From Escherichia phage MIZ6, in the sequence record OR192075.1: a stretch of DNA of 64,000 nt, one strand, 5' to 3'. The stretch's first letter is position 1; the number at the start of each line of letters is the position of its first letter. This document shows, piece after piece, positions 923 through 20,740 of the stretch. Made by a program: the position numbers and the translations under genes. Under the pieces are notes generated by a model, which worked only from the letters and a program-made list of their open reading frames with translations, had not been told where the DNA came from and did not search any database.

Positions 923-983
923 AATATCATCTCCTTTGGTTTATATGGCGGGAGTATCTTAGCAATACTCCCTTAATACTATA

Positions 984-1265
984 TTATTCGTGATTAGTTT
1001 CGATGTTGTGCATTTTGCACCAGTTCAGCCAATCGCCCAGATCTTGATAGTTGATGCTTTTATCTGCTGCCATCGTTTTTGTCTTGATACCCATATGTGC
1101 GTTATGAGTAAGCATTTTTACAGTGAACTCAATTTTATCGCCTTTAGCTTTAACATCAACCAGTTTGGTCCACTGGCTACCAGCGCCGCGAATGTTCATG
1201 CCAACGATGTTTCCGATGTATGCTTCTTTGTTTTTCAGGATTTCGGTTGCTTTGATGAATTTCAT
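984..1265 (-). CDS. hypothetical protein
   Basis: ORF behind promoter cassette and GGAGAATCAAA RBS. Confidence 0.55.
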   Translation of the reverse strand: MKFIKATEILKNKEAYIGNIVGMNIRGAGSQWTKLVDVKAKGDKIEFTVKMLTHNAHMGIKTKTMAADKSINYQDLGDWLNWCKMHNIETNHE

Positions 1266-1335
1266 TTTTGATTCTCCAGTTCGTTTCGGTATGGGTGTAT
1301 TATGCTATGTTCTTACTTTGGTGTCAACAACTTTT

Positions 1336-1605
1336 TTAGATATTTTCAGAAATAAATTTTAAAACTTGACGTAAATGTTTCTCATCTTTGATAGTCGCCG
1401 GAAGTTCTTCTTTTACTTCCTGTGCAAGATAGATATTTCCGTTCCAAGTGAAAGATCCGTCTTCGTTTACGCGATAGCTGAACATCCACTCGCAATCATT
1501 TTCGATTTCATATACACACAGAAGGGTGTAATCGTTAAAGCTATTGATTTCAAGGTCGAAGCCGTGACGTTTTGCAAAGTTGGTAGTGGTTTTAGTCAGT
1601 GCCAT
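1336..1605 (-). CDS. hypothetical protein
   Basis: ORF behind promoter cassette; same 5'UTR as gene ending at 121. Confidence 0.55.
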   Translation of the reverse strand: MALTKTTTNFAKRHGFDLEINSFNDYTLLCVYEIENDCEWMFSYRVNEDGSFTWNGNIYLAQEVKEELPATIKDEKHLRQVLKFISENI

Positions 1606-1695
1606 TGTTTGATTCTCCTAAGTGGTATCTCGTTTCGATGGGTGTATTATGCTATACACAGGATCTGGTGTCAACAACTTTTTTAAAAAATAGGC

Positions 1696-1722
1696 AATAA
1701 AAAAGCCGACACTATGGTCGGC
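1696..1722 (-). terminator. rho-independent terminator
   Basis: hairpin GCCGACACTATGGTCGGC followed by T-run on minus strand. Confidence 0.6.
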
Positions 1723-1727
1723 ACATT

Positions 1728-2045
1728 TTAAAAATTCTTGCTATATATGCAAGCCTCATAATCTAGAGGATGACCGCCAATCCTACCAGGCTTAATATTC
1801 CAACCGCATCGATATTTGCTGACCATGCTAACCGTTTCGGTTCTTAGAGCATTTCTTTGCAAATCATACCCCCTAAATTCTTGTCTATAAGGACAGTCCG
1901 CTTTGCAAGTTGGCGGTTCTACGTCATTTAGCGGGTCAGAAGCAGTTGGCTTTATTATCAATTCTTTGTTTGCAATAATCATAAGCACATCCCATTGAAG
2001 GCAATTTAACATCTTCGCAATAAGTGTTGAATCCGTCAAATACAA
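1728..2045 (-). CDS. hypothetical Cys-rich protein (start uncertain; TTG at 2045 or ATG at 2012/1982)
   Basis: ORF track; overlaps upstream gene. Confidence 0.35.
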   Translation of the reverse strand: MYLTDSTLIAKMLNCLQWDVLMIIANKELIIKPTASDPLNDVEPPTCKADCPYRQEFRGYDLQRNALRTETVSMVSKYRCGWNIKPGRIGGHPLDYEACIYSKNF

Positions 2046-2115
2046 TCACTTCGTATTTGACTCCATCGGCGATAGCTTTTACTTTATACCATCCATGCTT
2101 GTATAAAATCTTCAT
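1936..2115 (-). CDS. hypothetical protein (59 aa)
   Basis: ATG at 2115 with GAGGG RBS behind promoter cassette. Confidence 0.45.
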   Translation of the reverse strand: MKILYKHGWYKVKAIADGVKYEVIVFDGFNTYCEDVKLPSMGCAYDYCKQRIDNKANCF

Positions 2116-2200
2116 CTTTATTTCCCTCAATCTCGTTTCGATTGGTGTATTATGCTATAGGCGTGAACTGGTGTCAATGCCTTTTTTTAAAATTTTATGC

Positions 2201-2227
2201 AATAAAAAAGCCGACACTAAGGTCGGC
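2201..2227 (-). terminator. rho-independent terminator
   Basis: hairpin GCCGACACTAAGGTCGGC plus T-run on minus strand. Confidence 0.6.
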
Positions 2228-2235
2228 TAATAAAA

Positions 2236-2544
2236 TCATTTAGACAAATAATCATTCTGTGCAATCCGGTCGGCGTATGCTGGTGTTATGTCAATCGCCA
2301 GCACTTTAACGCGTGCTTTCTTGCGACCTGGGTTTTCTCGTAACCAGTGCTCATGACCGTGAACATTTTTATACTTTGATGCTGTTTCGAAAGTACGGAT
2401 CGGACCTGGGTAATCAGCGTAAAGGATCTCTAGATCTTCGGTGATGTAAAAATATACATCGTAATTGCTGTTCTCTAGCTTAAGCAGAGACTTTCGGAAC
2501 ATTGGGAGATTTTCGCGGGTAAATTCAAAGATATTATCTTTCAT
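2236..2544 (-). CDS. HxHW-family small protein (paralog 1 of 6)
   Basis: motifs YFYITEDLEI, HGHEHW, VLAIDI; RBS GAGGATAA. Confidence 0.6.
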   Translation of the reverse strand: MKDNIFEFTRENLPMFRKSLLKLENSNYDVYFYITEDLEILYADYPGPIRTFETASKYKNVHGHEHWLRENPGRKKARVKVLAIDITPAYADRIAQNDYLSK

Positions 2545-2565
2545 AGTATTATCCTCAATAGTTGG

Positions 2566-2589
2566 ATGAAAAGGGGCGTTAACGCCCCC
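2566..2589 (-). terminator. putative terminator hairpin
   Basis: GGGGCGTTAACGCCCC plus short T-run on minus strand. Confidence 0.45.
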
Positions 2590-2594
2590 ATATA

Positions 2595-2882
2595 TTAAAA
2601 CAGTCCTTCCTGTACACCGTAGTAGAGTTCGTCGCTGATAATTTCATTAATGCGACGGTGTGCATATTCCTGATTTGCGAAGTTGTCAGCAAGTTCTACT
2701 TTAGTTTCGCCGTCATGAGTCCATTTAGTGATAACTTTACCATCTGCAAATTTGAAGTTGAACTCTTTAGCTACTGCATCGCGTACCAGACGTGCAAACT
2801 TATTGTTGCGGATTGCATTGTCGGTTTCGTGTGCAGCGTGAGCAAATTTGTTAACTTTCAGAGTGATAGTGATGTATGCCAT
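2595..2882 (-). CDS. hypothetical protein, paralog family A (with 5887..6198)
   Basis: shared motif AIR..VR.A.AKEFN.K; promoter cassette upstream. Confidence 0.55.
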   Translation of the reverse strand: MAYITITLKVNKFAHAAHETDNAIRNNKFARLVRDAVAKEFNFKFADGKVITKWTHDGETKVELADNFANQEYAHRRINEIISDELYYGVQEGLF

Positions 2883-2963
2883 AATTTGATTCTCCTAGTT
2901 AGAAAGTGTATCTCGTTTCGATGGGTGTATTATGCTATACACCCGATCCGTTGTCAACACTTT

Positions 2964-3242
2964 TTATAAAATAATTTTTTGATATTTTTCTATGATGTTT
3001 GTGTAGGTCACATCAACCGCTAGCACCGTTGCTTCGAATCCACCGTTTAGCCAATGGCTATGGTCATGATCGTGAAAGAAACCAAGACCAGTACGAAGAC
3101 CTTCTTTATATTCGGCGCGTACATTTAGATCATCATCGATAAACAGATAAAACCATGAATTTTTACTAGGATTGATGATACAACCTTTCAGATTAGGGAG
3201 AATATCACGACTAAGAATAAACTTATCACCTACTTTTAGCAT
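2964..3242 (-). CDS. HxHW-family small protein (paralog 2)
   Basis: FYLFIDDDL, HDHDHSHW, VLAVDV; internal ATG at 3242 with RBS GTGAGGAAAA. Confidence 0.55.
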   Translation of the reverse strand: MLKVGDKFILSRDILPNLKGCIINPSKNSWFYLFIDDDLNVRAEYKEGLRTGLGFFHDHDHSHWLNGGFEATVLAVDVTYTNIIEKYQKIIL

Positions 3243-4691: not shown

Positions 4692-4757
4692 TTTTGATTC
4701 TCCTATCTCGTTGGTATGTGTGCATTATAGGGGATCACCGATCCCCTGTCAACAACT

Positions 4758-12056: not shown

Positions 12057-13226
12057 TTACCAATCAATCTTATCAGCCGGAATCAGTTTCTTATAATTCC
12101 GTAGATAGTAAGTTTTCATTGAATCCAGAATACGGTCATAATCAAGACCATCAAATGCAATCATCAGACACATGAAAATATATGCTTGTGCATCACCATG
12201 TTTACGTGATTCGATAGTCGCATTGGATGCATATGTCTTTCTGTCTTCTCCCGCGTGTGCGTTATAAAATTCTGTTGCTGTCGTGAAGGCATTGCGAAGA
12301 ATAGACCTGAATGCCTCCTCGAATAGCTCGATTCGTTCCAGTGCTTCCGGTTCGCCTTCATATGCAGCACGCAAATCATCGGTTTCGCTTTCTACGACAT
12401 AGTAGATCAGATTATTAGGAAACATCGATGTGTTTTTAATGTTATGCACACCAATATACCATTCACTCTTCACTTTGAACATTTGACCGTCTTTAGTGCG
12501 TGCAACAATTCCTTCGATACCTTCTGCGGTCCGAACTTCATCAAGAATATTGCTAAAACGCGCTGAATCAACCTGTAACGCATTTACCAGATGAGGACGT
12601 AGGATTGCGTCAGCAAATAGCATTTGATGCGGTACGTACTCTCCTGTGACGTTATGGCGTACATTCAGAAGTGTTAGCGACGGTTCAGAATATTCTACAA
12701 CAATTCGGTTGCTGGGTGCTGTATATTCAAAGTTGAAAGTATAATCAGACCCAATATCAGCAATCTTAGCGCGTAGATCCGCATACTTCTCTGAATACAG
12801 AAGACCGTTTGCTCTCTCTGCCTGGCTTGAGTACAAGGCCGCTTTAGACTTCAACTGAACATAGCCGTTATCAATGTAGGTGCTTACTAGACTACCGTCC
12901 ATTTTGTCCATGACCATTTCCACATCTTCCGGCTTAAAGCGAGCGCGATCATTCTCGCCTAAATTAAAAAACTTCTCCATAGGACGAGATGCAATGCGGA
13001 CCGGACGACCTTTATCGTCAATTTCAAACATGATCCCGCGACACTCTAACGCATCTGGTTTATTCCACATTTCCGGTTTGCTCAAGTACAGATAACTAAA
13101 AATGCGCATACGGGTTTGCATCGCCGTAATTTCATCTTTGTAATAGAACGTATCAGATCCGTCACATAGTGCCATCAGATTTTTGAACAATGCTAAAACT
13201 TTTTTGTTGTTTTCTTTTGTTGACAT
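12057..13226 (-). CDS. rnlA: RNA ligase 1
   Basis: aligns to T4 Rnl1 (ALECRGIMFE...RIASRPMEKFFNL.EN; KxDG as DKMDGSL). Confidence 0.9.
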   Translation of the reverse strand: MSTKENNKKVLALFKNLMALCDGSDTFYYKDEITAMQTRMRIFSYLYLSKPEMWNKPDALECRGIMFEIDDKGRPVRIASRPMEKFFNLGENDRARFKPEDVEMVMDKMDGSLVSTYIDNGYVQLKSKAALYSSQAERANGLLYSEKYADLRAKIADIGSDYTFNFEYTAPSNRIVVEYSEPSLTLLNVRHNVTGEYVPHQMLFADAILRPHLVNALQVDSARFSNILDEVRTAEGIEGIVARTKDGQMFKVKSEWYIGVHNIKNTSMFPNNLIYYVVESETDDLRAAYEGEPEALERIELFEEAFRSILRNAFTTATEFYNAHAGEDRKTYASNATIESRKHGDAQAYIFMCLMIAFDGLDYDRILDSMKTYYLRNYKKLIPADKIDW

Positions 13227-13623
13227 AATTTGTGTTCCATTCTGGTTTAAATTTGGTGATCAAAACAGGTTCTTCGATATCGGCAGTGCTTATAATATCC
13301 TTACCCGTTGGATTCTCGATGTACAACTCAAAGCACTGTCGGTAATAGAATGTTACTGTCTTACCTTCCTCTAGCGCCTTATGAATATTCTTACTCTTGC
13401 GAGTATCCGCTGTTGGTGTTTGTCTGTTAATGCTAGTCCGGTAATAATTGATCCGCTTTCTGAGATTGACAGTCTGACCAATGTATACCAGTTCATCATC
13501 AACAACAATAGCGTAAAGAACATTTAAACGGTTCTTCTGAGGCGGCAGAATCACATCACCATCTTTACACTCTAAACATGAATATTTAACGAATCCATAG
13601 TTTTCTATTAGCTCATTAATCAT
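13162..13623 (-). CDS. denA: GIY-YIG nuclease, endonuclease II-like
   Basis: VLYAIVVDDELVYIGQT.NLRKRINYYRT GIY-YIG core; position between nrdB and rnlA as in T4. Confidence 0.6.
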   Translation of the reverse strand: MINELIENYGFVKYSCLECKDGDVILPPQKNRLNVLYAIVVDDELVYIGQTVNLRKRINYYRTSINRQTPTADTRKSKNIHKALEEGKTVTFYYRQCFELYIENPTGKDIISTADIEEPVLITKFKPEWNTNYVNKRKQQKSFSIVQKSDGTM

Positions 13624-14967: not shown

Positions 14968-15444
14968 TTAATCATGACCGTGATTTGCAATATCCGCTCG
15001 CGTCTTATCTTTGTGATTTCCTACGTCAAAGACACGATAACCATTTTCACGCAAAACTTTAATCACTTCTGGGTTATCCTCAAAGACTCCGACAACTTCA
15101 TCTTTATCAAAGGATTTAATTACCTCTAATTTGATGTGATAGTCTTTACGGGAATCGGTACGGCCTCTCATAAAGATTTTATCAAAACACACCCCGTTAG
15201 AAATTAACCAATCAATTGTTTCCATGTAAGCATGTGAACTTCGTCCGGTGAGGATGTAAATCAAATGCCCGTTGTCGGAAAGAGCATTAATAACACGAAT
15301 TACATCGTAAATGGGGGAATCTCCCCCACATGCCTTGTTATATTCGATCCATGACTCGACTTTATCAAGATTTTCGGTTGGCATCTTTGCTAGTCGATGC
15401 GTTGGATCTGTGATCGTAAAATCTAAATCGACAAAATATATCAT
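14968..15444 (-). CDS. HAD-superfamily phosphatase-like protein
   Basis: N-terminal DLDFT (DxD) motif; start coupled to nrdB stop. Confidence 0.45.
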   Translation of the reverse strand: MIYFVDLDFTITDPTHRLAKMPTENLDKVESWIEYNKACGGDSPIYDVIRVINALSDNGHLIYILTGRSSHAYMETIDWLISNGVCFDKIFMRGRTDSRKDYHIKLEVIKSFDKDEVVGVFEDNPEVIKVLRENGYRVFDVGNHKDKTRADIANHGHD

Positions 15445-16604
15445 AGATATTTCCCGAATCGGTTGTAGTCGTCGTCTGTTAAATCGGTATTAACCTGAGA
15501 TACCAGATACATGATCTCTACTTCCTGCGCTGCATTCTGTACTTCGTCAGAGTTCAACCATTTACGCATCCACGGTAACGGATGACGACGAACACTAAAC
15601 GGGCTTTTCAGTCCGGCAGCACGCATACGGGAATCTGCCAGGTATTCTATATAGGTTTTCAGAATTTCCGGTGACAGGTTAGGAATTGCCCCCATTGCGA
15701 ATAGGTGGTCTACCCATTCTTTTTCTTGCTCGACAACATCCAGAAAGATTTTCGTTGCTTCGCCTTCAAGTTCTTCCGCAATCTGTTTCCACTCATCACC
15801 ATCAACCCCCGTTTGCCATTGACGAATAATGTATTGTGTGCCTTTTAAGTGAAGTTGTTCATCACGCGCAATAAATTTCATGATCTTCGCGTTACCTTCC
15901 AGTAAACCACGTTCGGCAAAGCTGAAAGTACATGCAAAGGACACATAAAAACGGATTGCCTCCAGTGCATTAACGCAATGCATACACAGATAGAGTGATT
16001 CCATCAGATTGCGTTTAGTTTCTTCCACGTACGAAATGCTATCAGAATATGCATCAAGGTCAAATTCATTTTCAGAAGAACGACTAAAACTTTCTTTAGC
16101 GTCCTCGTATTCACGGATTTTCACCAGAACATCATCATAATATTTCCCGATAGATTCCGCTCGCTTCATGATAGCAGGGTTATCGATGATCTGGTCGAAC
16201 TCACTAGCCGGATCAATGAAACAGTTACGCATAATGTGTGTATAGCTTCGGCTATGAATCGTTTCGCTGAATGTCCATGTTTGCAACCATGTATCGAGAG
16301 TTGGATCAGATACAATTGGACCAAATGCTGCGGACGGTGCGCGACCTTGAATAGAATCAAGTAATGTCTGATACTTCAAGTTTTCAGTAAAGAAACGCTT
16401 TTCAACGTCACCCATATTAAGATATTGAATGCGGTCGGTTGCAAGTGAAATTTCTTCTGGACGCCAGAAAAATGACAATTGCTTTTCGATCAGTTCTTCA
16501 AATACTTGATGACGCTGAATATCATAGCGAGCTATACCCAACCCACTACCCAGAAACATCGGTTCGTTCATAATATCAACATGTTCGCGGTTAAATACGC
16601 TCAT
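15441..16604 (-). CDS. nrdB: ribonucleotide reductase beta subunit
   Basis: T4 NrdB-like length (387 aa), ferritin-like diiron-site motifs; adjacent to nrdA. Confidence 0.9.
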   Translation of the reverse strand: MSVFNREHVDIMNEPMFLGSGLGIARYDIQRHQVFEELIEKQLSFFWRPEEISLATDRIQYLNMGDVEKRFFTENLKYQTLLDSIQGRAPSAAFGPIVSDPTLDTWLQTWTFSETIHSRSYTHIMRNCFIDPASEFDQIIDNPAIMKRAESIGKYYDDVLVKIREYEDAKESFSRSSENEFDLDAYSDSISYVEETKRNLMESLYLCMHCVNALEAIRFYVSFACTFSFAERGLLEGNAKIMKFIARDEQLHLKGTQYIIRQWQTGVDGDEWKQIAEELEGEATKIFLDVVEQEKEWVDHLFAMGAIPNLSPEILKTYIEYLADSRMRAAGLKSPFSVRRHPLPWMRKWLNSDEVQNAAQEVEIMYLVSQVNTDLTDDDYNRFGKYL

Positions 16605-16619
16605 TAATTCACCTCACTA

Positions 16620-16787
16620 TCACTTTTTAACACAAAAGAACTTAGTATTTCTGTTTATTTCGCTATCCTGCTGCAATTCCTGCACAGCTTCAAAACAATT
16701 TTGATATGATGAAAACTCTACGCTGGTAACAGTTCCTTTATTATATACGCCTACGCTAACGGAAAGCAATAACCATAATGTAGTCAT
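16620..16787 (-). CDS. small hydrophobic-N-terminus peptide (55 aa), paralog of 16787..16960
   Basis: hand-translated MTTLWLLLSVSVGVYNKG...; RBS AAGGTGA. Confidence 0.45.
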   Translation of the reverse strand: MTTLWLLLSVSVGVYNKGTVTSVEFSSYQNCFEAVQELQQDSEINRNTKFFCVKK

Positions 16788-16960
16788 TAGTTCACCTTTT
16801 GTTTTTCAACGCAATATAGATTCATAAAGCGTTTATTGTCTTCGCTGATAATCTCGCGAGCTTTAACGCAATCCTGCTTTGTTGCAAACTCAATGCTTGA
16901 CATATTTCCGTAATTATACATTGAATTGCTTATTGCAATCAATAACCATACAGTAGCCAT
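16787..16960 (-). CDS. small hydrophobic-N-terminus peptide (57 aa), paralog of 16620..16787
   Basis: hand-translated MATVWLLIAISNSMYNYG...; RBS GAGG. Confidence 0.45.
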   Translation of the reverse strand: MATVWLLIAISNSMYNYGNMSSIEFATKQDCVKAREIISEDNKRFMNLYCVEKQKVN

Positions 16961-17127
16961 TATCCGACAACCTCAAAACATTTATCATCAGGAAGAATCG
17001 CCCATTCTACACCGTATTCATCCTCGACGTAGTAGCAAGTCCCATCATGTCGAGCATCATATTCATCACCAACAACAAAGCTATCAGCTAGTTCAAAATC
17101 TACAGCAACACATTTTAATTTGGTCAT
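16960..17127 (-). CDS. small acidic hypothetical protein (55 aa)
   Basis: ATG at 17127 with RBS GTGAGGATT. Confidence 0.5.
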   Translation of the reverse strand: MTKLKCVAVDFELADSFVVGDEYDARHDGTCYYVEDEYGVEWAILPDDKCFEVVG

Positions 17128-17158
17128 AATAAAATCCTCACTTGTTTTTGATGGTTGT

Positions 17159-17187
17159 ATTATAGCGGGGATTTCTCCCCGCGTCAA
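17159..17187 (-). promoter_or_regulatory. sigma70-like promoter (TTGACG, 17-nt palindromic spacer GCGGGGATTTCTCCCCG, TATAAT)
   Basis: hexamers on minus strand just downstream of nrdA stop. Confidence 0.5.
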
Positions 17188-17195
17188 CACTTATT

Positions 17196-19439
17196 TTACA
17201 GCTTGCAAGATGAGCACTCGCTAGAGTCTTCCGTACCATCTGCACCGTCGCGAACGTTCGCATAATACAGGGTTTTCAGACCGTAATATTGAGCAAACAA
17301 CATATCATCTAAAACATCAGCAATATCGACTTTACCCGTCTTATAAGTGCTTGGATCGTAGGATGTGTTGGAACTAATCGCCTGATCTACAAACTTCTGC
17401 ATGATCGCTGCCAGTGTCAGATAAGGCTTGTTACCTTTCTTGATCAGTGTCCAAAGCAGGTCAATAACATCAGCATTATTCTCTACGTTCGGAATAACCT
17501 GATTAAATTGCCCTTCTTTCGATCCTTTAACCGATACAATACCGCGAGGCGGTTCAATACCGTTTGTGCTGTTAGATACCTGAGAAGACGACTCACAAGG
17601 CATCAGAGCCGAAAGCGTACTGTTACGAATGCCATATTTTTTCAGGTCTTCGCGCAGTTCTTCCCAATCCATCTCATATACCGGATCAACCAGTTCATCT
17701 ACTGTCTTTTTGTACCAGTCGATAGGCAGTTCACCGCGACCATAACGTGTTTCGTGCATCAGTTCGCAAGCACCCTTCTCTTTAGCCAGTTGCACACTAG
17801 CCTTAATCAGAGCATATTGCAAGCGTTCAAACGTTTTATGCGTAAACTCGTTAGCGTCTTCATATGTGAAGAAATTATCCGCGAGATACGATGCAAAGTT
17901 AGTCACCCCAACACCCAGAGAGCGACGTTTTTTGGCTGTCAGAGCTTGCTCTACAGGATAATCCTGGTAATCTAACAGGTTGTCAAGTGCACGCACCATA
18001 ACCATAGCAATGCGTTCTACTTCTTCCATATTTTCGATATCAAAGTTTCCTAAAACATATGCTGCCAAAGTACATAGGCTGATCTCTGAATCATCACGAC
18101 CCATCGGTTTTGTAGGCAGAGCAATTTCACAACACAGGTTGGATTGTTTAATCGGTGCTACATTACGAATAAACGCCCCGTGATTGTTCATGTTGTCTGT
18201 GAACGTTGGGTAGATTCGACCAGTGTTAAAACGTTCAATTGCCACCGCTAAAAACAGGTCTTCGGCTTTAACACGAGTTTTACGAACACTCGGATCTTTT
18301 TCCAGTTTTTCGTAAAGCTGGCGGAAACCTTCCTCATCTCGGAAGTATAGATCCCACAACAAGCCACCTGCAACATCTGGACTAAACAGAGTAATGTAAT
18401 CCCGTTTAAGGAATCGCTCTACCATCAGGTTATTAATCTGTACGCCGTAATCAAGATGACGAATGCGGTTATCTTCCACCCCCTTATTGTTCTTTAACAC
18501 AATCAGACTTTCAAACTCTAAATGCCACATTGGGTAATAGAGAGTCGCCGCCCCGCCACGAATACCGCCTTGTGAGCATGACTTAACGGCAGTCTGAAAA
18601 TGTTTCCAGAATGGGATAACGCCAGTATGACGAACTTCACCATGCCCGATCTTAGATCCTTCCGCGCGAATCATGCCAGCGTTGATACCGATACCAGCAC
18701 GCTTGCTAATATACTTGATGATTGCATTTGCTGTTTCGTTGATGCCCTGCAATGAGTCATCACTTTCAATCACCACACACGAACTAAATTGGCGTGTTGG
18801 GGTACGCACACCTGCCATAATCGGAGTAGGCAGAGAGATTTGCTTATTCGCAACAGCATTATAAAAATCAATCACATGTTCAAGTCGATTTTCGGTCTCT
18901 TCTTGATGCAAGCACATACCGATCAGCATATACGCAAATTGCGGTGTTTCGATGATTTTCTTAGTGCTGCGATCCTGAACAAGATATTTCTCTTTTAACT
19001 GCATCGCACCAGCATAGGTCATTTTAAAATCAAGTTTATGGTCGATGAATTTCTCCAGATATTCCACTTCTTCACGGGAATACTTTTGCAGAATTTCGCG
19101 ATCATATTTTCCGATTGCAATATTACGCTCAATATGGCTATAAAAATCAATAGGTTGGAATTGACCGTATACTGATTTACGAAGCGCGAACATTGCAAGG
19201 TTACTTGCTACATATTGATAATCGGGTGTTTCTACCGTGATGTTATCTGCGGCGACCTTAATCAATACTTTCTGGATATCATTGGTAGACATACCTTCTG
19301 TCAGAAGTGGTTCAACCATATCAAACAATTCATATGGATCAACGTTATGACCTTCGGCTGCCGCTTCCAGAATTTTCATTACTTTTTCTTTTTCAAACGG
19401 AACAGTCAGACCGGAAGACTTAACAACATTTTTAATCAT
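17196..19439 (-). CDS. nrdA: ribonucleotide reductase alpha subunit
   Basis: 747 aa, class Ia NrdA-like with C-terminal Cys pair (SSECSSCKL). Confidence 0.92.
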   Translation of the reverse strand: MIKNVVKSSGLTVPFEKEKVMKILEAAAEGHNVDPYELFDMVEPLLTEGMSTNDIQKVLIKVAADNITVETPDYQYVASNLAMFALRKSVYGQFQPIDFYSHIERNIAIGKYDREILQKYSREEVEYLEKFIDHKLDFKMTYAGAMQLKEKYLVQDRSTKKIIETPQFAYMLIGMCLHQEETENRLEHVIDFYNAVANKQISLPTPIMAGVRTPTRQFSSCVVIESDDSLQGINETANAIIKYISKRAGIGINAGMIRAEGSKIGHGEVRHTGVIPFWKHFQTAVKSCSQGGIRGGAATLYYPMWHLEFESLIVLKNNKGVEDNRIRHLDYGVQINNLMVERFLKRDYITLFSPDVAGGLLWDLYFRDEEGFRQLYEKLEKDPSVRKTRVKAEDLFLAVAIERFNTGRIYPTFTDNMNNHGAFIRNVAPIKQSNLCCEIALPTKPMGRDDSEISLCTLAAYVLGNFDIENMEEVERIAMVMVRALDNLLDYQDYPVEQALTAKKRRSLGVGVTNFASYLADNFFTYEDANEFTHKTFERLQYALIKASVQLAKEKGACELMHETRYGRGELPIDWYKKTVDELVDPVYEMDWEELREDLKKYGIRNSTLSALMPCESSSQVSNSTNGIEPPRGIVSVKGSKEGQFNQVIPNVENNADVIDLLWTLIKKGNKPYLTLAAIMQKFVDQAISSNTSYDPSTYKTGKVDIADVLDDMLFAQYYGLKTLYYANVRDGADGTEDSSECSSCKL

Positions 19440-19507
19440 ATTACCTCACTTCATATTTTAGCAGGAACAAGTTTATCCTCCATATTGGGGGCTTTCGCCC
19501 CCTTTGT

Positions 19508-20740
19508 TTATACTGCCATTTGAGCGGTGATCGCTGGATGGCTTTGATAGTTGTGAATTTTAAAGTCTTTCGGAGTCTTTGTCAATACCTCATCTAAAGA
19601 TTTAAATTCCGGCAACTCAATTGTTGGTTTATCAAACGGAACACGGCTTAACTGTTCCATAACTTGATCAAAGTGGTTTTTGTAAATGTGAGTATCTCCA
19701 CCAGAGAAAATCAGTTCTCCTACCTCAAGATCACACATTTTCGCTATGATGTGAGTTAACAGCGCATAGCTGGCAACATTAAAGGGCAAGCCCAAAAAGC
19801 TGTCTACGCTTCGCTGAAACCACATACAAGACAGTTTACCTTCATTGACGTAGAATTGCACGAAAGGATGACATACACCCAATACAGCATTATGTGTTCC
19901 TTGTACGTTCCATGAGTCAATGATGATACGTCGATCCGTTGGATTGTTTTTAATTTGTTCAATCACGTTTTGTAACTGGTCTTCCCAAATCTTCGGGCGA
20001 TAGACATATTCTTCATCGTCTTTAGTGCTCGATGTGTCTACGTCCATACTAGCAAAGATCGTGGTATCTGGTGCTAAAATATCCCCACCCAGATAATCAC
20101 TATCAAGTAGATAACCGAAATAACCATCATCTACCCATTCCTGGAATCCCCACAAGCAATATGCATCATTAACAAAATTAGATTGAGTCTTCCAGTGATC
20201 TGCTACTAAGAATTGATTATATTCAGAATCAAACTCTTCATAACGCATACCACGCCAGATAGCACATAAACGGTCTTCTGTGTCGTTGGTTGGCGTAAAG
20301 TCTTCTACCCACGGGTGTTTAAATGTATGTGTATATTTGCTCTTAACGCGCTTAATTTTGATTTCACCGTGTGGATGAATCGGTTTGCGTCGCCATGCCA
20401 TACCATACATATTGCCGACATTATAACCATTGAATCGCAAAGGATTCTTTTCTTTCATATCAAGACAGTTGCCGCGCCAAATGTCGAAGGCTTCTTCGTC
20501 AAACTTTCCGCGTGTAATTTCCTGTAAGCGACGGCGGTCAAGTGATCCCTCCATAAACCATAGCAATTCGCCAATTACAGAGGCTGTAGCCATCTTTTTA
20601 GTGGTCAGTAACGGAAACCCCTTGCTTAAGTCAATTCGCATCTCTGCGCCGAATTTAGAGAGCGTACCTACCCCCGTTCGGTCTTCACGAGGCCAACCGT
20701 TATCAAGAACATCACGCAATAGTTTCAAATATTCTTTCAT
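19508..20740 (-). CDS. td: thymidylate synthase with large internal insertion
   Basis: ThyA motifs (DRTGVGT, catalytic CH in VCHPF, LGLPFNVASYALL) plus an extra ~125 residues after YGMAWRR. Confidence 0.85.
   Translation of the reverse strand: MKEYLKLLRDVLDNGWPREDRTGVGTLSKFGAEMRIDLSKGFPLLTTKKMATASVIGELLWFMEGSLDRRRLQEITRGKFDEEAFDIWRGNCLDMKEKNPLRFNGYNVGNMYGMAWRRKPIHPHGEIKIKRVKSKYTHTFKHPWVEDFTPTNDTEDRLCAIWRGMRYEEFDSEYNQFLVADHWKTQSNFVNDAYCLWGFQEWVDDGYFGYLLDSDYLGGDILAPDTTIFASMDVDTSSTKDDEEYVYRPKIWEDQLQNVIEQIKNNPTDRRIIIDSWNVQGTHNAVLGVCHPFVQFYVNEGKLSCMWFQRSVDSFLGLPFNVASYALLTHIIAKMCDLEVGELIFSGGDTHIYKNHFDQVMEQLSRVPFDKPTIELPEFKSLDEVLTKTPKDFKIHNYQSHPAITAQMAV

Follow-up and report, generated by a model that had tools for sequence, protein, structure and literature searches.

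Three small genes behind a promoter-early stem-loop between nrdA and nrdB in a Krischvirus phage

Background

The promoter-early stem-loop (PeSL) was defined by Arbiol et al. (2010) together with the cassettes of phages RB49 and phi1, and the promoter and terminator activity of PeSLs other than the one described here was shown experimentally with lacZ reporters (PMC2839356). Its signature was given by Comeau et al. (2014) as TTGACA-N17-TATAAT plus G(n)-loop-C(n) (PMC4122927). According to both papers the stem is located mostly between the -35 and -10 hexamers, the element lies between an upstream stop codon and a Shine-Dalgarno (SD) sequence with its ATG, and PeSLs are proposed as recombination sites that shuffle ORFan cassettes (PMC2839356, PMC4122927). 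The PeSL found between nrdA and the first of the genes treated here is not named in the main text of the RB49/phi1 PeSL paper.

The second system for comparison is the nrdA-nrdB interval of phage T4, which comprises mobE (an HNH homing endonuclease) and nrdB.1, with a group I intron carrying I-TevIII inside nrdB itself. Ribonucleotide reductase (RNR) loci are known hot spots for mobile insertions, and T4 needs a separate promoter just upstream of nrdB (PMC2988022).

Results and Discussion

Organization of the nrdA-nrdB interval

The window, by which is meant the whole 64 kb stretch of DNA analysed, belongs to Krischvirus, the RB49-like T4-type coliphages. Every gene of its nrdA-nrdB region is carried on the minus strand, and the features are listed in transcription order in Table 1. 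The nrdB-nrdA stretch is 100% identical to that of Escherichia phages MIZ2 and MIZ3, the window being the MIZ2/MIZ3 allele, and 96-98% identical to RB49 (about 97%), phi1, KFS-EC and about 50 other records.

Table 1. Features of the nrdA-nrdB region of the window, in transcription order
Feature	Coordinates	Strand	Remarks
td	20740..19508	-	First in transcription order of the listed region
nrdA, RNR large subunit	17196..19439	-	Upstream of ORF-A
PeSL promoter, TTGACG-N17-TATAAT with G/C stem-loop in spacer	17159..17187	-	
ORF-A, 55 aa, acidic	16960..17127	-	RB49p233 / phi1 ORF233
ORF-B, 57 aa, MATVWLLIAISNS...	16787..16960	-	RB49p232 / phi1 ORF232
ORF-C, 55 aa, MTTLWLLLSVSVG...	16620..16787	-	RB49p231 / phi1 ORF231
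nrdB, RNR small subunit	15441..16604	-	Start 15 nt past the ORF-C stop; SD GAGGTG
HAD-type PNKP-like 3'-phosphatase	14968..15444	-	PF25109, E 2.9e-13; overlaps the nrdB stop

The original prediction of three small ORFs between nrdA and nrdB was confirmed in coordinates and peptide sequences; it had given no strand, and the three are on the minus strand. The 55-aa ORF that was said to follow the other two is indeed acidic (ORF-A, with a pI of 4.05 and a net charge of about -10), but it is the first of the three in transcription order. The 1-nt overlaps reported for the other two were found at both junctions, ORF-A/ORF-B and ORF-B/ORF-C, each as a TAATG stop/start (positions 16960 and 16787). 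An SD (GAGG) is present 9 nt upstream of the ATG of ORF-A, and ORF-C has its own (AAGGTG) 5 nt upstream of its start. The sole SD candidate of ORF-B is a distant GAGG, 10 nt away, so that coupling to ORF-A is probably needed for its translation. A GTG start would give a longer ORF-A of 76 aa, which is unlikely as a product of the PeSL transcript because its start falls within the promoter.

As in T4, the interval contains variable, non-essential insertions that are co-transcribed with nrdB or stand ahead of it, with stop/start overlaps (PMC2988022), and some Krischvirus relatives (PTE-Eco09, AV108 and G37-3) have a homing endonuclease there. In contrast to T4, the window has no endonuclease in the interval, and ORF-A, ORF-B and ORF-C are unrelated in sequence to the T4 mobE, nrdB.1, nrdA.1 and nrdA.2. 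A homing endonuclease or intron was looked for in the interval of the window and rejected: there was no HNH or GIY-YIG Pfam match, and the Rfam scan of positions 15000-20000 gave no hit, only a sub-threshold chance match to 5.8S rRNA. As for T4 itself, the original prediction was right in placing an endonuclease (mobE) in this interval and wrong in placing the intron there.

The PeSL upstream of ORF-A

The promoter upstream of ORF-A (GTGTTGACGCGGGGAGAAATCCCCGCTATAAT, 29 nt) agrees with the sigma70 hexamers at 11/12 positions and has a spacer of 17 nt. Most of this spacer is formed by a GGGGA/TCCCC stem and a GAAA loop; the stem reaches 7 bp (GCGGGGA/TCCCCGC) when the last G of the -35 hexamer is counted, and RNAfold gives -19 kcal/mol for a 40-nt promoter context. 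The TAA stop of nrdA is found 9 nt before the -35 hexamer, and the GAGG and ATG of ORF-A are downstream. Judged by its sequence, this is the known PeSL element. It shares with the PeSL cassettes of RB49 and phi1 the near-consensus sigma70 promoter, the N17 spacer, the G(n)-loop-C(n) hairpin between -35 and -10, the position directly past an upstream stop and before SD and ATG, and the location ahead of small ORFan-type genes. It differs from them in being located in a conserved nucleotide-metabolism block and not in a hyperplastic region, and in that it would also feed a core gene, nrdB. By analogy with the PeSLs studied with reporters it would have both promoter and attenuator activity. The promoter with a palindromic spacer of the original prediction is therefore present, but it would drive the whole A-B-C(-nrdB) unit and not the acidic ORF alone.

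In the window as a whole 13 TTGAC..TATAAT sites were identified, where chance would give 0.68; all of them are on the minus strand, and two more promoters with a G/C hairpin in the spacer are located at 407-435 and 4724-4752. The 29-nt PeSL is identical in 8/8 relatives examined and also in a metagenomic locus, L028.

Families, selection and annotation of the three genes

ORF-A matches phrog_16302 along its whole length (residues 1-55 of 55, E 9e-42), and ORF-B and ORF-C have full-length matches to phrog_5579 (E 1.6e-23 and 1.5e-23, respectively). The paralogy proposed for the 57- and 55-aa ORFs holds: on their BLASTP alignment (36% identity, 71% positives, E 6e-15) ORF-B and ORF-C are paralogs. 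Among 7-9 Krischvirus genomes the variation in the three ORFs is mostly at third codon positions, with pN/pS of 0.16 for ORF-A, 0.07 for ORF-B and 0.24 for ORF-C; as read from these substitutions, purifying selection acts on the three. Conservation in related phages was checked with tblastn and the ORFs were found in more than 50 phage records: ORF-A in 58 (at least 80% identity), ORF-B in 52 (at least 95%) and ORF-C in 54 (at least 85%).

The RB49 and phi1 counterparts (RB49p231-233 and phi1 ORF231-233) are the same genes, with the same position, order and overlaps and 98-100% amino acid identity, and no material difference from the window was found; they are annotated as hypothetical protein. 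The genes, their PHROG families and the PeSL element are already public and not novel. Pfam, NCBIfam and PADLOC scans of the three ORFs gave nothing above noise. In the PDB sequence search the profile of ORF-B and ORF-C reached only noise (E>0.4) and ORF-A had no match, and the word-indexed protein searches with ORF-B and ORF-A returned Krischvirus relatives only.

The B/C family and the predicted folds

A profile of ORF-B and ORF-C (the B/C family, phrog_5579) was searched against 1.84 billion representative proteins and retrieved 58 clusters at E<=1e-3, whose length is 50-70 aa with few exceptions; three long repetitive matches, apparently spurious, were left out. In the alignment of 56 sequences C31 and C50 are invariant (56/56), as the original prediction had it for a conserved Cys, and W5, L7 and F25 reach at least 90% conservation. 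All members except one (55/56) have exactly two cysteines. ORF-B and ORF-C match the family profile with E about 1e-21 to 1e-26, partly by construction as the alignment includes both. Pfam gave no match for any of the 56 members, and the word-indexed search with the family alignment returned only unnamed metagenomic proteins. As paralogs the two genes are old and in tandem; they belong to a widespread phage family, in which tandem or near-tandem pairs also arose independently in two other lineages (L026 and L036).

The AlphaFold2 model of ORF-B, obtained with the family alignment (pLDDT 89.1, pTM 0.71), contains strand 4-11, strand 20-25, helix 28-41 and strand 46-53. The products of ORF-B and ORF-C are predicted to be a soluble, compact beta-beta-alpha-beta domain, where the hydrophobic N-terminus is, in the model, the first strand. 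Since both faces of strands 1 and 3 are hydrophobic, these proteins probably act as dimers, or may have a bound partner. The invariant pair of cysteines speaks for a chemical function (redox or metal) and against pure binding. The structural match of the model to the periplasmic domain of MzrA (PDB 4pwu) includes the strand of residues 4-11. Membership in the MzrA family was rejected, with neither a sequence-profile match nor an N-terminal TM anchor found. A thioredoxin, glutaredoxin or NrdH-type reductant was also rejected (no CxxC; cysteines 19 residues apart; a beta-beta-alpha-beta model; no Pfam or NCBIfam match among members). The fold search of BFVD matched only uncharacterised phage proteins.

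The product of ORF-A is predicted to be a soluble acidic SH3-like barrel, its AlphaFold2 model being a five-stranded SH3-like beta-barrel (pLDDT 86.6, from a shallow alignment of 7 near-identical sequences). Homologs of ORF-A outside Krischvirus were not detectable by protein search or tblastn. Gp54 of phage Bas11 (PDB 9axb; PMC11578894) differs in having six strands instead of the five of the ORF-A model and has no detectable sequence similarity to it; nothing suggests CapRel triggering by ORF-A. The word peptides, used in the original prediction for these products, is right as to size and understates what are predicted to be folded domains.

Proposed expression and role of the cassette

The locus as a whole is best read as a PeSL-driven early accessory cassette of coupled genes for small soluble proteins that are non-essential protein binders, a reading that is considered fairly probable. 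It starts from what is observed at the locus, namely the sequence anatomy, the conservation, the dispensability and the PeSL-flanked exchange. The hairpin of the PeSL would attenuate read-through from nrdA, as expected from the PeSLs assayed experimentally, and its promoter would restart transcription by the host RNA polymerase about 25 nt upstream of ORF-A. A single early mRNA would contain ORF-A, ORF-B, ORF-C, nrdB and probably the HAD phosphatase gene, which is probably the last of the transcription unit, and the TAATG overlaps would couple translation from ORF-A to ORF-B and from ORF-B to ORF-C. The products, modelled as small, soluble, folded proteins and not as membrane peptides, would most likely bind a host or phage protein stoichiometrically and modulate it early in infection. 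Possible roles of such binders are host takeover, counter-defence or the tuning of nucleotide metabolism.

Genomic context of the B/C family and the RNR genes

Profile-verified members of the B/C family were identified in Drexlerviridae (JeanPiccard, Henu7 and tonijn), in Autographiviridae (SDFMU_EhYP, where the copy is unannotated, and a contig with the family gene between ligase and primase/helicase), in SenTO17 (Guernseyvirinae), in an Erwinia jumbo phage, in a Vibrio phage and in several metagenomic contigs. In the verified contexts they are always among small early, replication or nucleotide-metabolism genes. The Henu7 member comes immediately after the gene of a PNKP-type phosphatase, gp30, which is 39% identical to the phosphatase downstream of nrdB in the window.

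Class I RNR genes are located at about 1.5 kb or less from the family gene in two unrelated metagenomic lineages. In the first (L017/L018) the order is family gene, 131-aa ORF and RNR genes, beside thyX and NT5C; in the second (L024/L025) it is nrdA, HNH, nrdB, 83-aa ORF, 241-aa ORF and family gene, as identified in L024. Krischvirus and its relative L028 have the family gene or genes between nrdA and nrdB; in about 12-15 other lineages the flanks that are available contain no RNR gene. A tblastn search with the RNR-adjacent members (P0033 and P0084) gave no match to a known phage lineage, and their neighbours had no informative Pfam match. One of these neighbours matches a PHROG labelled thymidylate synthase. 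A scan with a degenerate DNA pattern identified 7 loci in viral contigs (3 of them false), 4 in metagenome contigs and 3 in genome contigs, none of the latter convincing; these loci are too few for a proper census of RNR adjacency, and their small number suggests that prophage copies of the B/C subgroup of the window are rare. Taken from these gene neighbourhoods, the link between the family and RNR is suggestive only.

The first alternative to an accessory cassette of protein binders is that ORF-B and ORF-C encode accessory factors of class I RNR, be it a mini-redoxin, a Cys-bridged metal or Fe-S dimer, or a partner in cofactor assembly or regulation for the NrdA/NrdB of phage or host, with the Cys pair doing the chemistry. 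The recurrence of family genes within about 1.5 kb of RNR genes in separate lineages (Krischvirus/L028, L017/L018 and L024) is in its favour, and so are the two invariant cysteines, the only ones in 55/56 members. Cys31 is placed in the first turn of the predicted helix of the ORF-B model, and the reactive thiols of redoxins typically sit in the first turn of a helix. However, most lineages of the family (Drexlerviridae, the Autographiviridae-like contigs, the jumbo phage and others) have no RNR gene nearby, CxxC is absent, and there is no similarity to the Trx, Grx, NrdH, NrdI or YfaE families. Phage AV108 keeps nrdA and nrdB without ORF-B and ORF-C. A rough base-rate estimate indicates only a modest enrichment, about 3 of 15-20 lineages, and the adjacency could be explained by RNR loci being hot spots for homing endonucleases and cassette insertion (PMC2988022). 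An accessory factor of RNR is thus considered unlikely. A related proposal for the whole family is an unrecognised phage two-cysteine mini-protein that acts on class I RNR or on a neighbouring nucleotide-metabolism enzyme, of phage or host, through a minimal redox relay or in the form of a Cys-bridged metal or Fe-S dimer. It would explain both the invariant Cys pair and the recurrence beside RNR genes in unrelated phages, and it is given a low probability.

Gain, loss and exchange at the site

The accessory cassette proposed above varies among relatives. In KMB43 a gene for a C5-cytosine DNA methyltransferase is present between two identical copies of the PeSL, directly past nrdA. In L028, which is metagenomic and Krischvirus-like (NrdA about 85% identical), the same PeSL precedes just one gene of the B/C family, and ORF-A is missing. 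With the methyltransferase bracketed by PeSL copies in one case and the same PeSL carrying a different cargo in the other, the element behaves as a recombination site at which related phages gain and lose cassettes.

ORF-B is absent in G37-3 and FL20, where the first 21 nt of ORF-B are fused to ORF-C. The removal is a recombination in TATGGTTATTG, common to the 5' ends of the two paralogs, and ORF-C is kept despite the deletion. In AV108 both ORF-B and ORF-C are absent and a homing-endonuclease gene is found before nrdB; an endonuclease gene was also identified in the interval of PTE-Eco09 and G37-3, in the latter of the HNH-AP2 type. At least 5 records have a disrupted ORF-A. Frameshifts were found in AV108, FL20 and the pair FL04 and kaaroe (codon 11, T4 to T5 in both), and a nonsense codon in G37-3. 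Some of the frameshifts, in short homopolymers, could be sequencing errors; the pattern recurs. A linked function of ORF-A and ORF-B, both lost in G37-3 and FL20, was rejected, as ORF-A is also disrupted with ORF-B intact in FL04 and kaaroe. Since there are natural isolates without ORF-A, without ORF-B or without both ORF-B and ORF-C, the three genes are, on the evidence of these genomes, dispensable for plaque-forming isolates, yet conserved where they are kept. This is the usual profile of accessory early genes.

The repeated loss or disruption of the ORFs in natural isolates would also be expected if they were decaying, selfish or neutral passengers of PeSL-mediated shuffling, the PeSL promoter for nrdB being what matters. 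The PeSL is 100% conserved everywhere it was examined, even where ORFs are lost, and the separate promoter that T4 needs just upstream of nrdB (PMC2988022) points in the same direction. Mere passengers are difficult to reconcile with pN/pS values of 0.07-0.24 and a third-position bias, with a B/C family conserved, invariant residues included, across very different phage families, with confident predicted folds, or with the tandem pairs that also arose in other phages. This second alternative is regarded as quite improbable, and the accessory cassette of small protein binders is preferred to it.

The hydrophobic N-terminus

The hydrophobic N-terminus described in the original prediction is real, but the membrane, signal or toxic peptide that it implied did not stand. 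The median length of the uncharged hydrophobic run at the N-terminus of the B/C family is 13 residues. For the best 19-residue window the insertion energy was estimated at about +6.9 kcal/mol, and the Kyte-Doolittle mean is 0.97, below the usual threshold of 1.6; 48/56 members, ORF-B and ORF-C included, have no K or R ahead of the hydrophobic core. A TM helix was rejected with the segment too short (about 19 residues or more being needed) and its insertion unfavourable; a Sec signal peptide was rejected with the positively charged n-region absent in those 48 members.

What can be said for membrane-inserted or exported products, whether for superinfection exclusion, lysis control or toxicity, and either signal-anchored or periplasmic and disulfide-bonded, is that the hydrophobic N-terminus is followed by a small-x-small motif (S-x-G) resembling a signal-peptidase site and that extracytoplasmic disulfide proteins typically carry an invariant Cys pair. 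Besides the short run, its energy and hydropathy and the missing charges, this alternative has against it that W5 and L7 belong to the best-conserved positions of the family, unlike in signal peptides, and that residues 4-11 are modelled with high confidence as a core beta-strand, part of the match to the soluble domain of MzrA. In a variant, the acidic ORF-A would be an antitoxin; however, ORF-A is frameshifted with ORF-B and ORF-C intact in FL04 and kaaroe, and it is absent wherever the B/C family occurs outside Krischvirus. Membrane or exported peptides are therefore seen as very doubtful. A type II toxin-antitoxin pair, with ORF-A as antitoxin and ORF-B/ORF-C as toxin, was rejected, as there is no obligate co-occurrence and the PADLOC scan was empty.

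Conclusions

The locus is largely ordinary, and the finding as it stands is of little consequence because annotation and literature already cover the genes, their families and the promoter element. What is added here is descriptive: the breadth, invariant Cys pair and predicted fold of the B/C family; the evidence that speaks against a location in the membrane; the catalogue of natural rearrangements at the site; and a weak RNR-neighbourhood signal for the B/C family.

The locus provides a clear-cut natural case of cassette exchange through a PeSL at a junction of core genes. The same 29-nt site presents in relatives a methyltransferase between duplicated PeSLs, a paralog-mediated deletion of ORF-B and a replacement by a homing endonuclease. 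The broad B/C family, with its invariant Cys pair, its presence in very different phage families and its location next to RNR genes in some lineages, is a lead worth following. If the RNR link were functional, the family would be a new small player in phage nucleotide metabolism.

Homing endonucleases at nrdB and a possible endonuclease elsewhere

In some Krischvirus isolates a homing-endonuclease gene lies upstream of nrdB, placed after ORF-C (the last of the three small genes between nrdA and nrdB) or after the scar left by its deletion, and the counterpart of these insertions in T4 is mobE. Elsewhere in the window, a 153-aa ORF with a borderline match to the GIY-YIG nuclease domain overlaps the start of a 389-aa ORF and is possibly a seg-like free-standing endonuclease.

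PeSL elements and the td gene

The insertion in phage KMB43, between nrdA and ORF-A (the first of the small genes), comprises a gene for a C5-cytosine DNA methyltransferase of 283 aa with one copy of the 29-nt PeSL (promoter-early stem-loop) on each side, both copies being identical. This is a textbook example of a PeSL-flanked cassette, and the same insertion seems to be present in Delraymugoa and Aragogtheria. The td 3' end contains another early promoter, TTGACA-N17-TAAAAT, and a GGGGGC-GAAA-GCCCCC hairpin follows between td and nrdA; together they probably make up a further PeSL, belonging to the subclass whose stem-loop comes after the -10 box. The Pfam ThyA match of the thymidylate synthase is split into two pieces, the C-terminal one aligning protein residues 254-410 with profile positions 110-266, which indicates an insertion of about 140 aa in the middle of the enzyme; the gene has identical length in RB49.

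Neighbours of the B/C family

The B/C family (phrog_5579) includes ORF-B and ORF-C. Independent tandem or near-tandem pairs of its genes were identified in two other phage contigs, therefore duplication within this family is recurrent. A clear but unannotated member was identified in the Autographiviridae phage SDFMU_EhYP, inside a 1.1-kb 'empty' gap with an AAA ATPase gene on one side and a DNA polymerase gene on the other. Class I RNR genes adjoin family members in unrelated metagenomic phages, where one nrdA contains an intein, one is interrupted by an I-HmuI-like endonuclease and in one case an HNH gene separates nrdA from nrdB. In phage Henu7 an unannotated family gene begins at the stop codon of the phosphatase gene, whose product (gp30) shares 39% identity with the Krischvirus HAD/PNKP-type phosphatase. 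The phosphatase is a second recurring neighbour of the B/C family, alongside RNR.

Features in the window, other phages and metagenomic contigs
Feature	Source	Coordinates	Strand	Window equivalent	Match
Homing-endonuclease gene	G37-3 (L011)	1679-2218		~16605-16619	HNH_3 + AP2
Homing-endonuclease gene	PTE-Eco09 (L003)	1668-2315		~16605-16619	
Homing-endonuclease gene	AV108 (L045)	939-1566		~16605-16619	
153-aa ORF	window	13162-13623	-		GIY-YIG, borderline, E 1.5e-4
389-aa ORF	window	12057-13226			
Methyltransferase gene	KMB43 (L002)	2219-3145		~17159-17187	PF00145
td, thymidylate synthase, 410 aa	window	19508-20740	-		
Early promoter	window	19557-19585	-		
Hairpin	window	19487-19502	-		
B/C-family pair	L026	2046-2437			
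B/C-family pair	L036	8987-9638			
B/C-family member	Enterobacter phage SDFMU_EhYP (L007)	2632-2811			profile E 4e-21
B/C-family gene adjoining RNR	L017/L018	4001-4192			
B/C-family gene adjoining RNR	L024/L025				
B/C-family gene adjoining RNR	L028/L029				
Phosphatase gene	Henu7 (L006)	2471-3153			
Phosphatase gene	window	14968-15444	-
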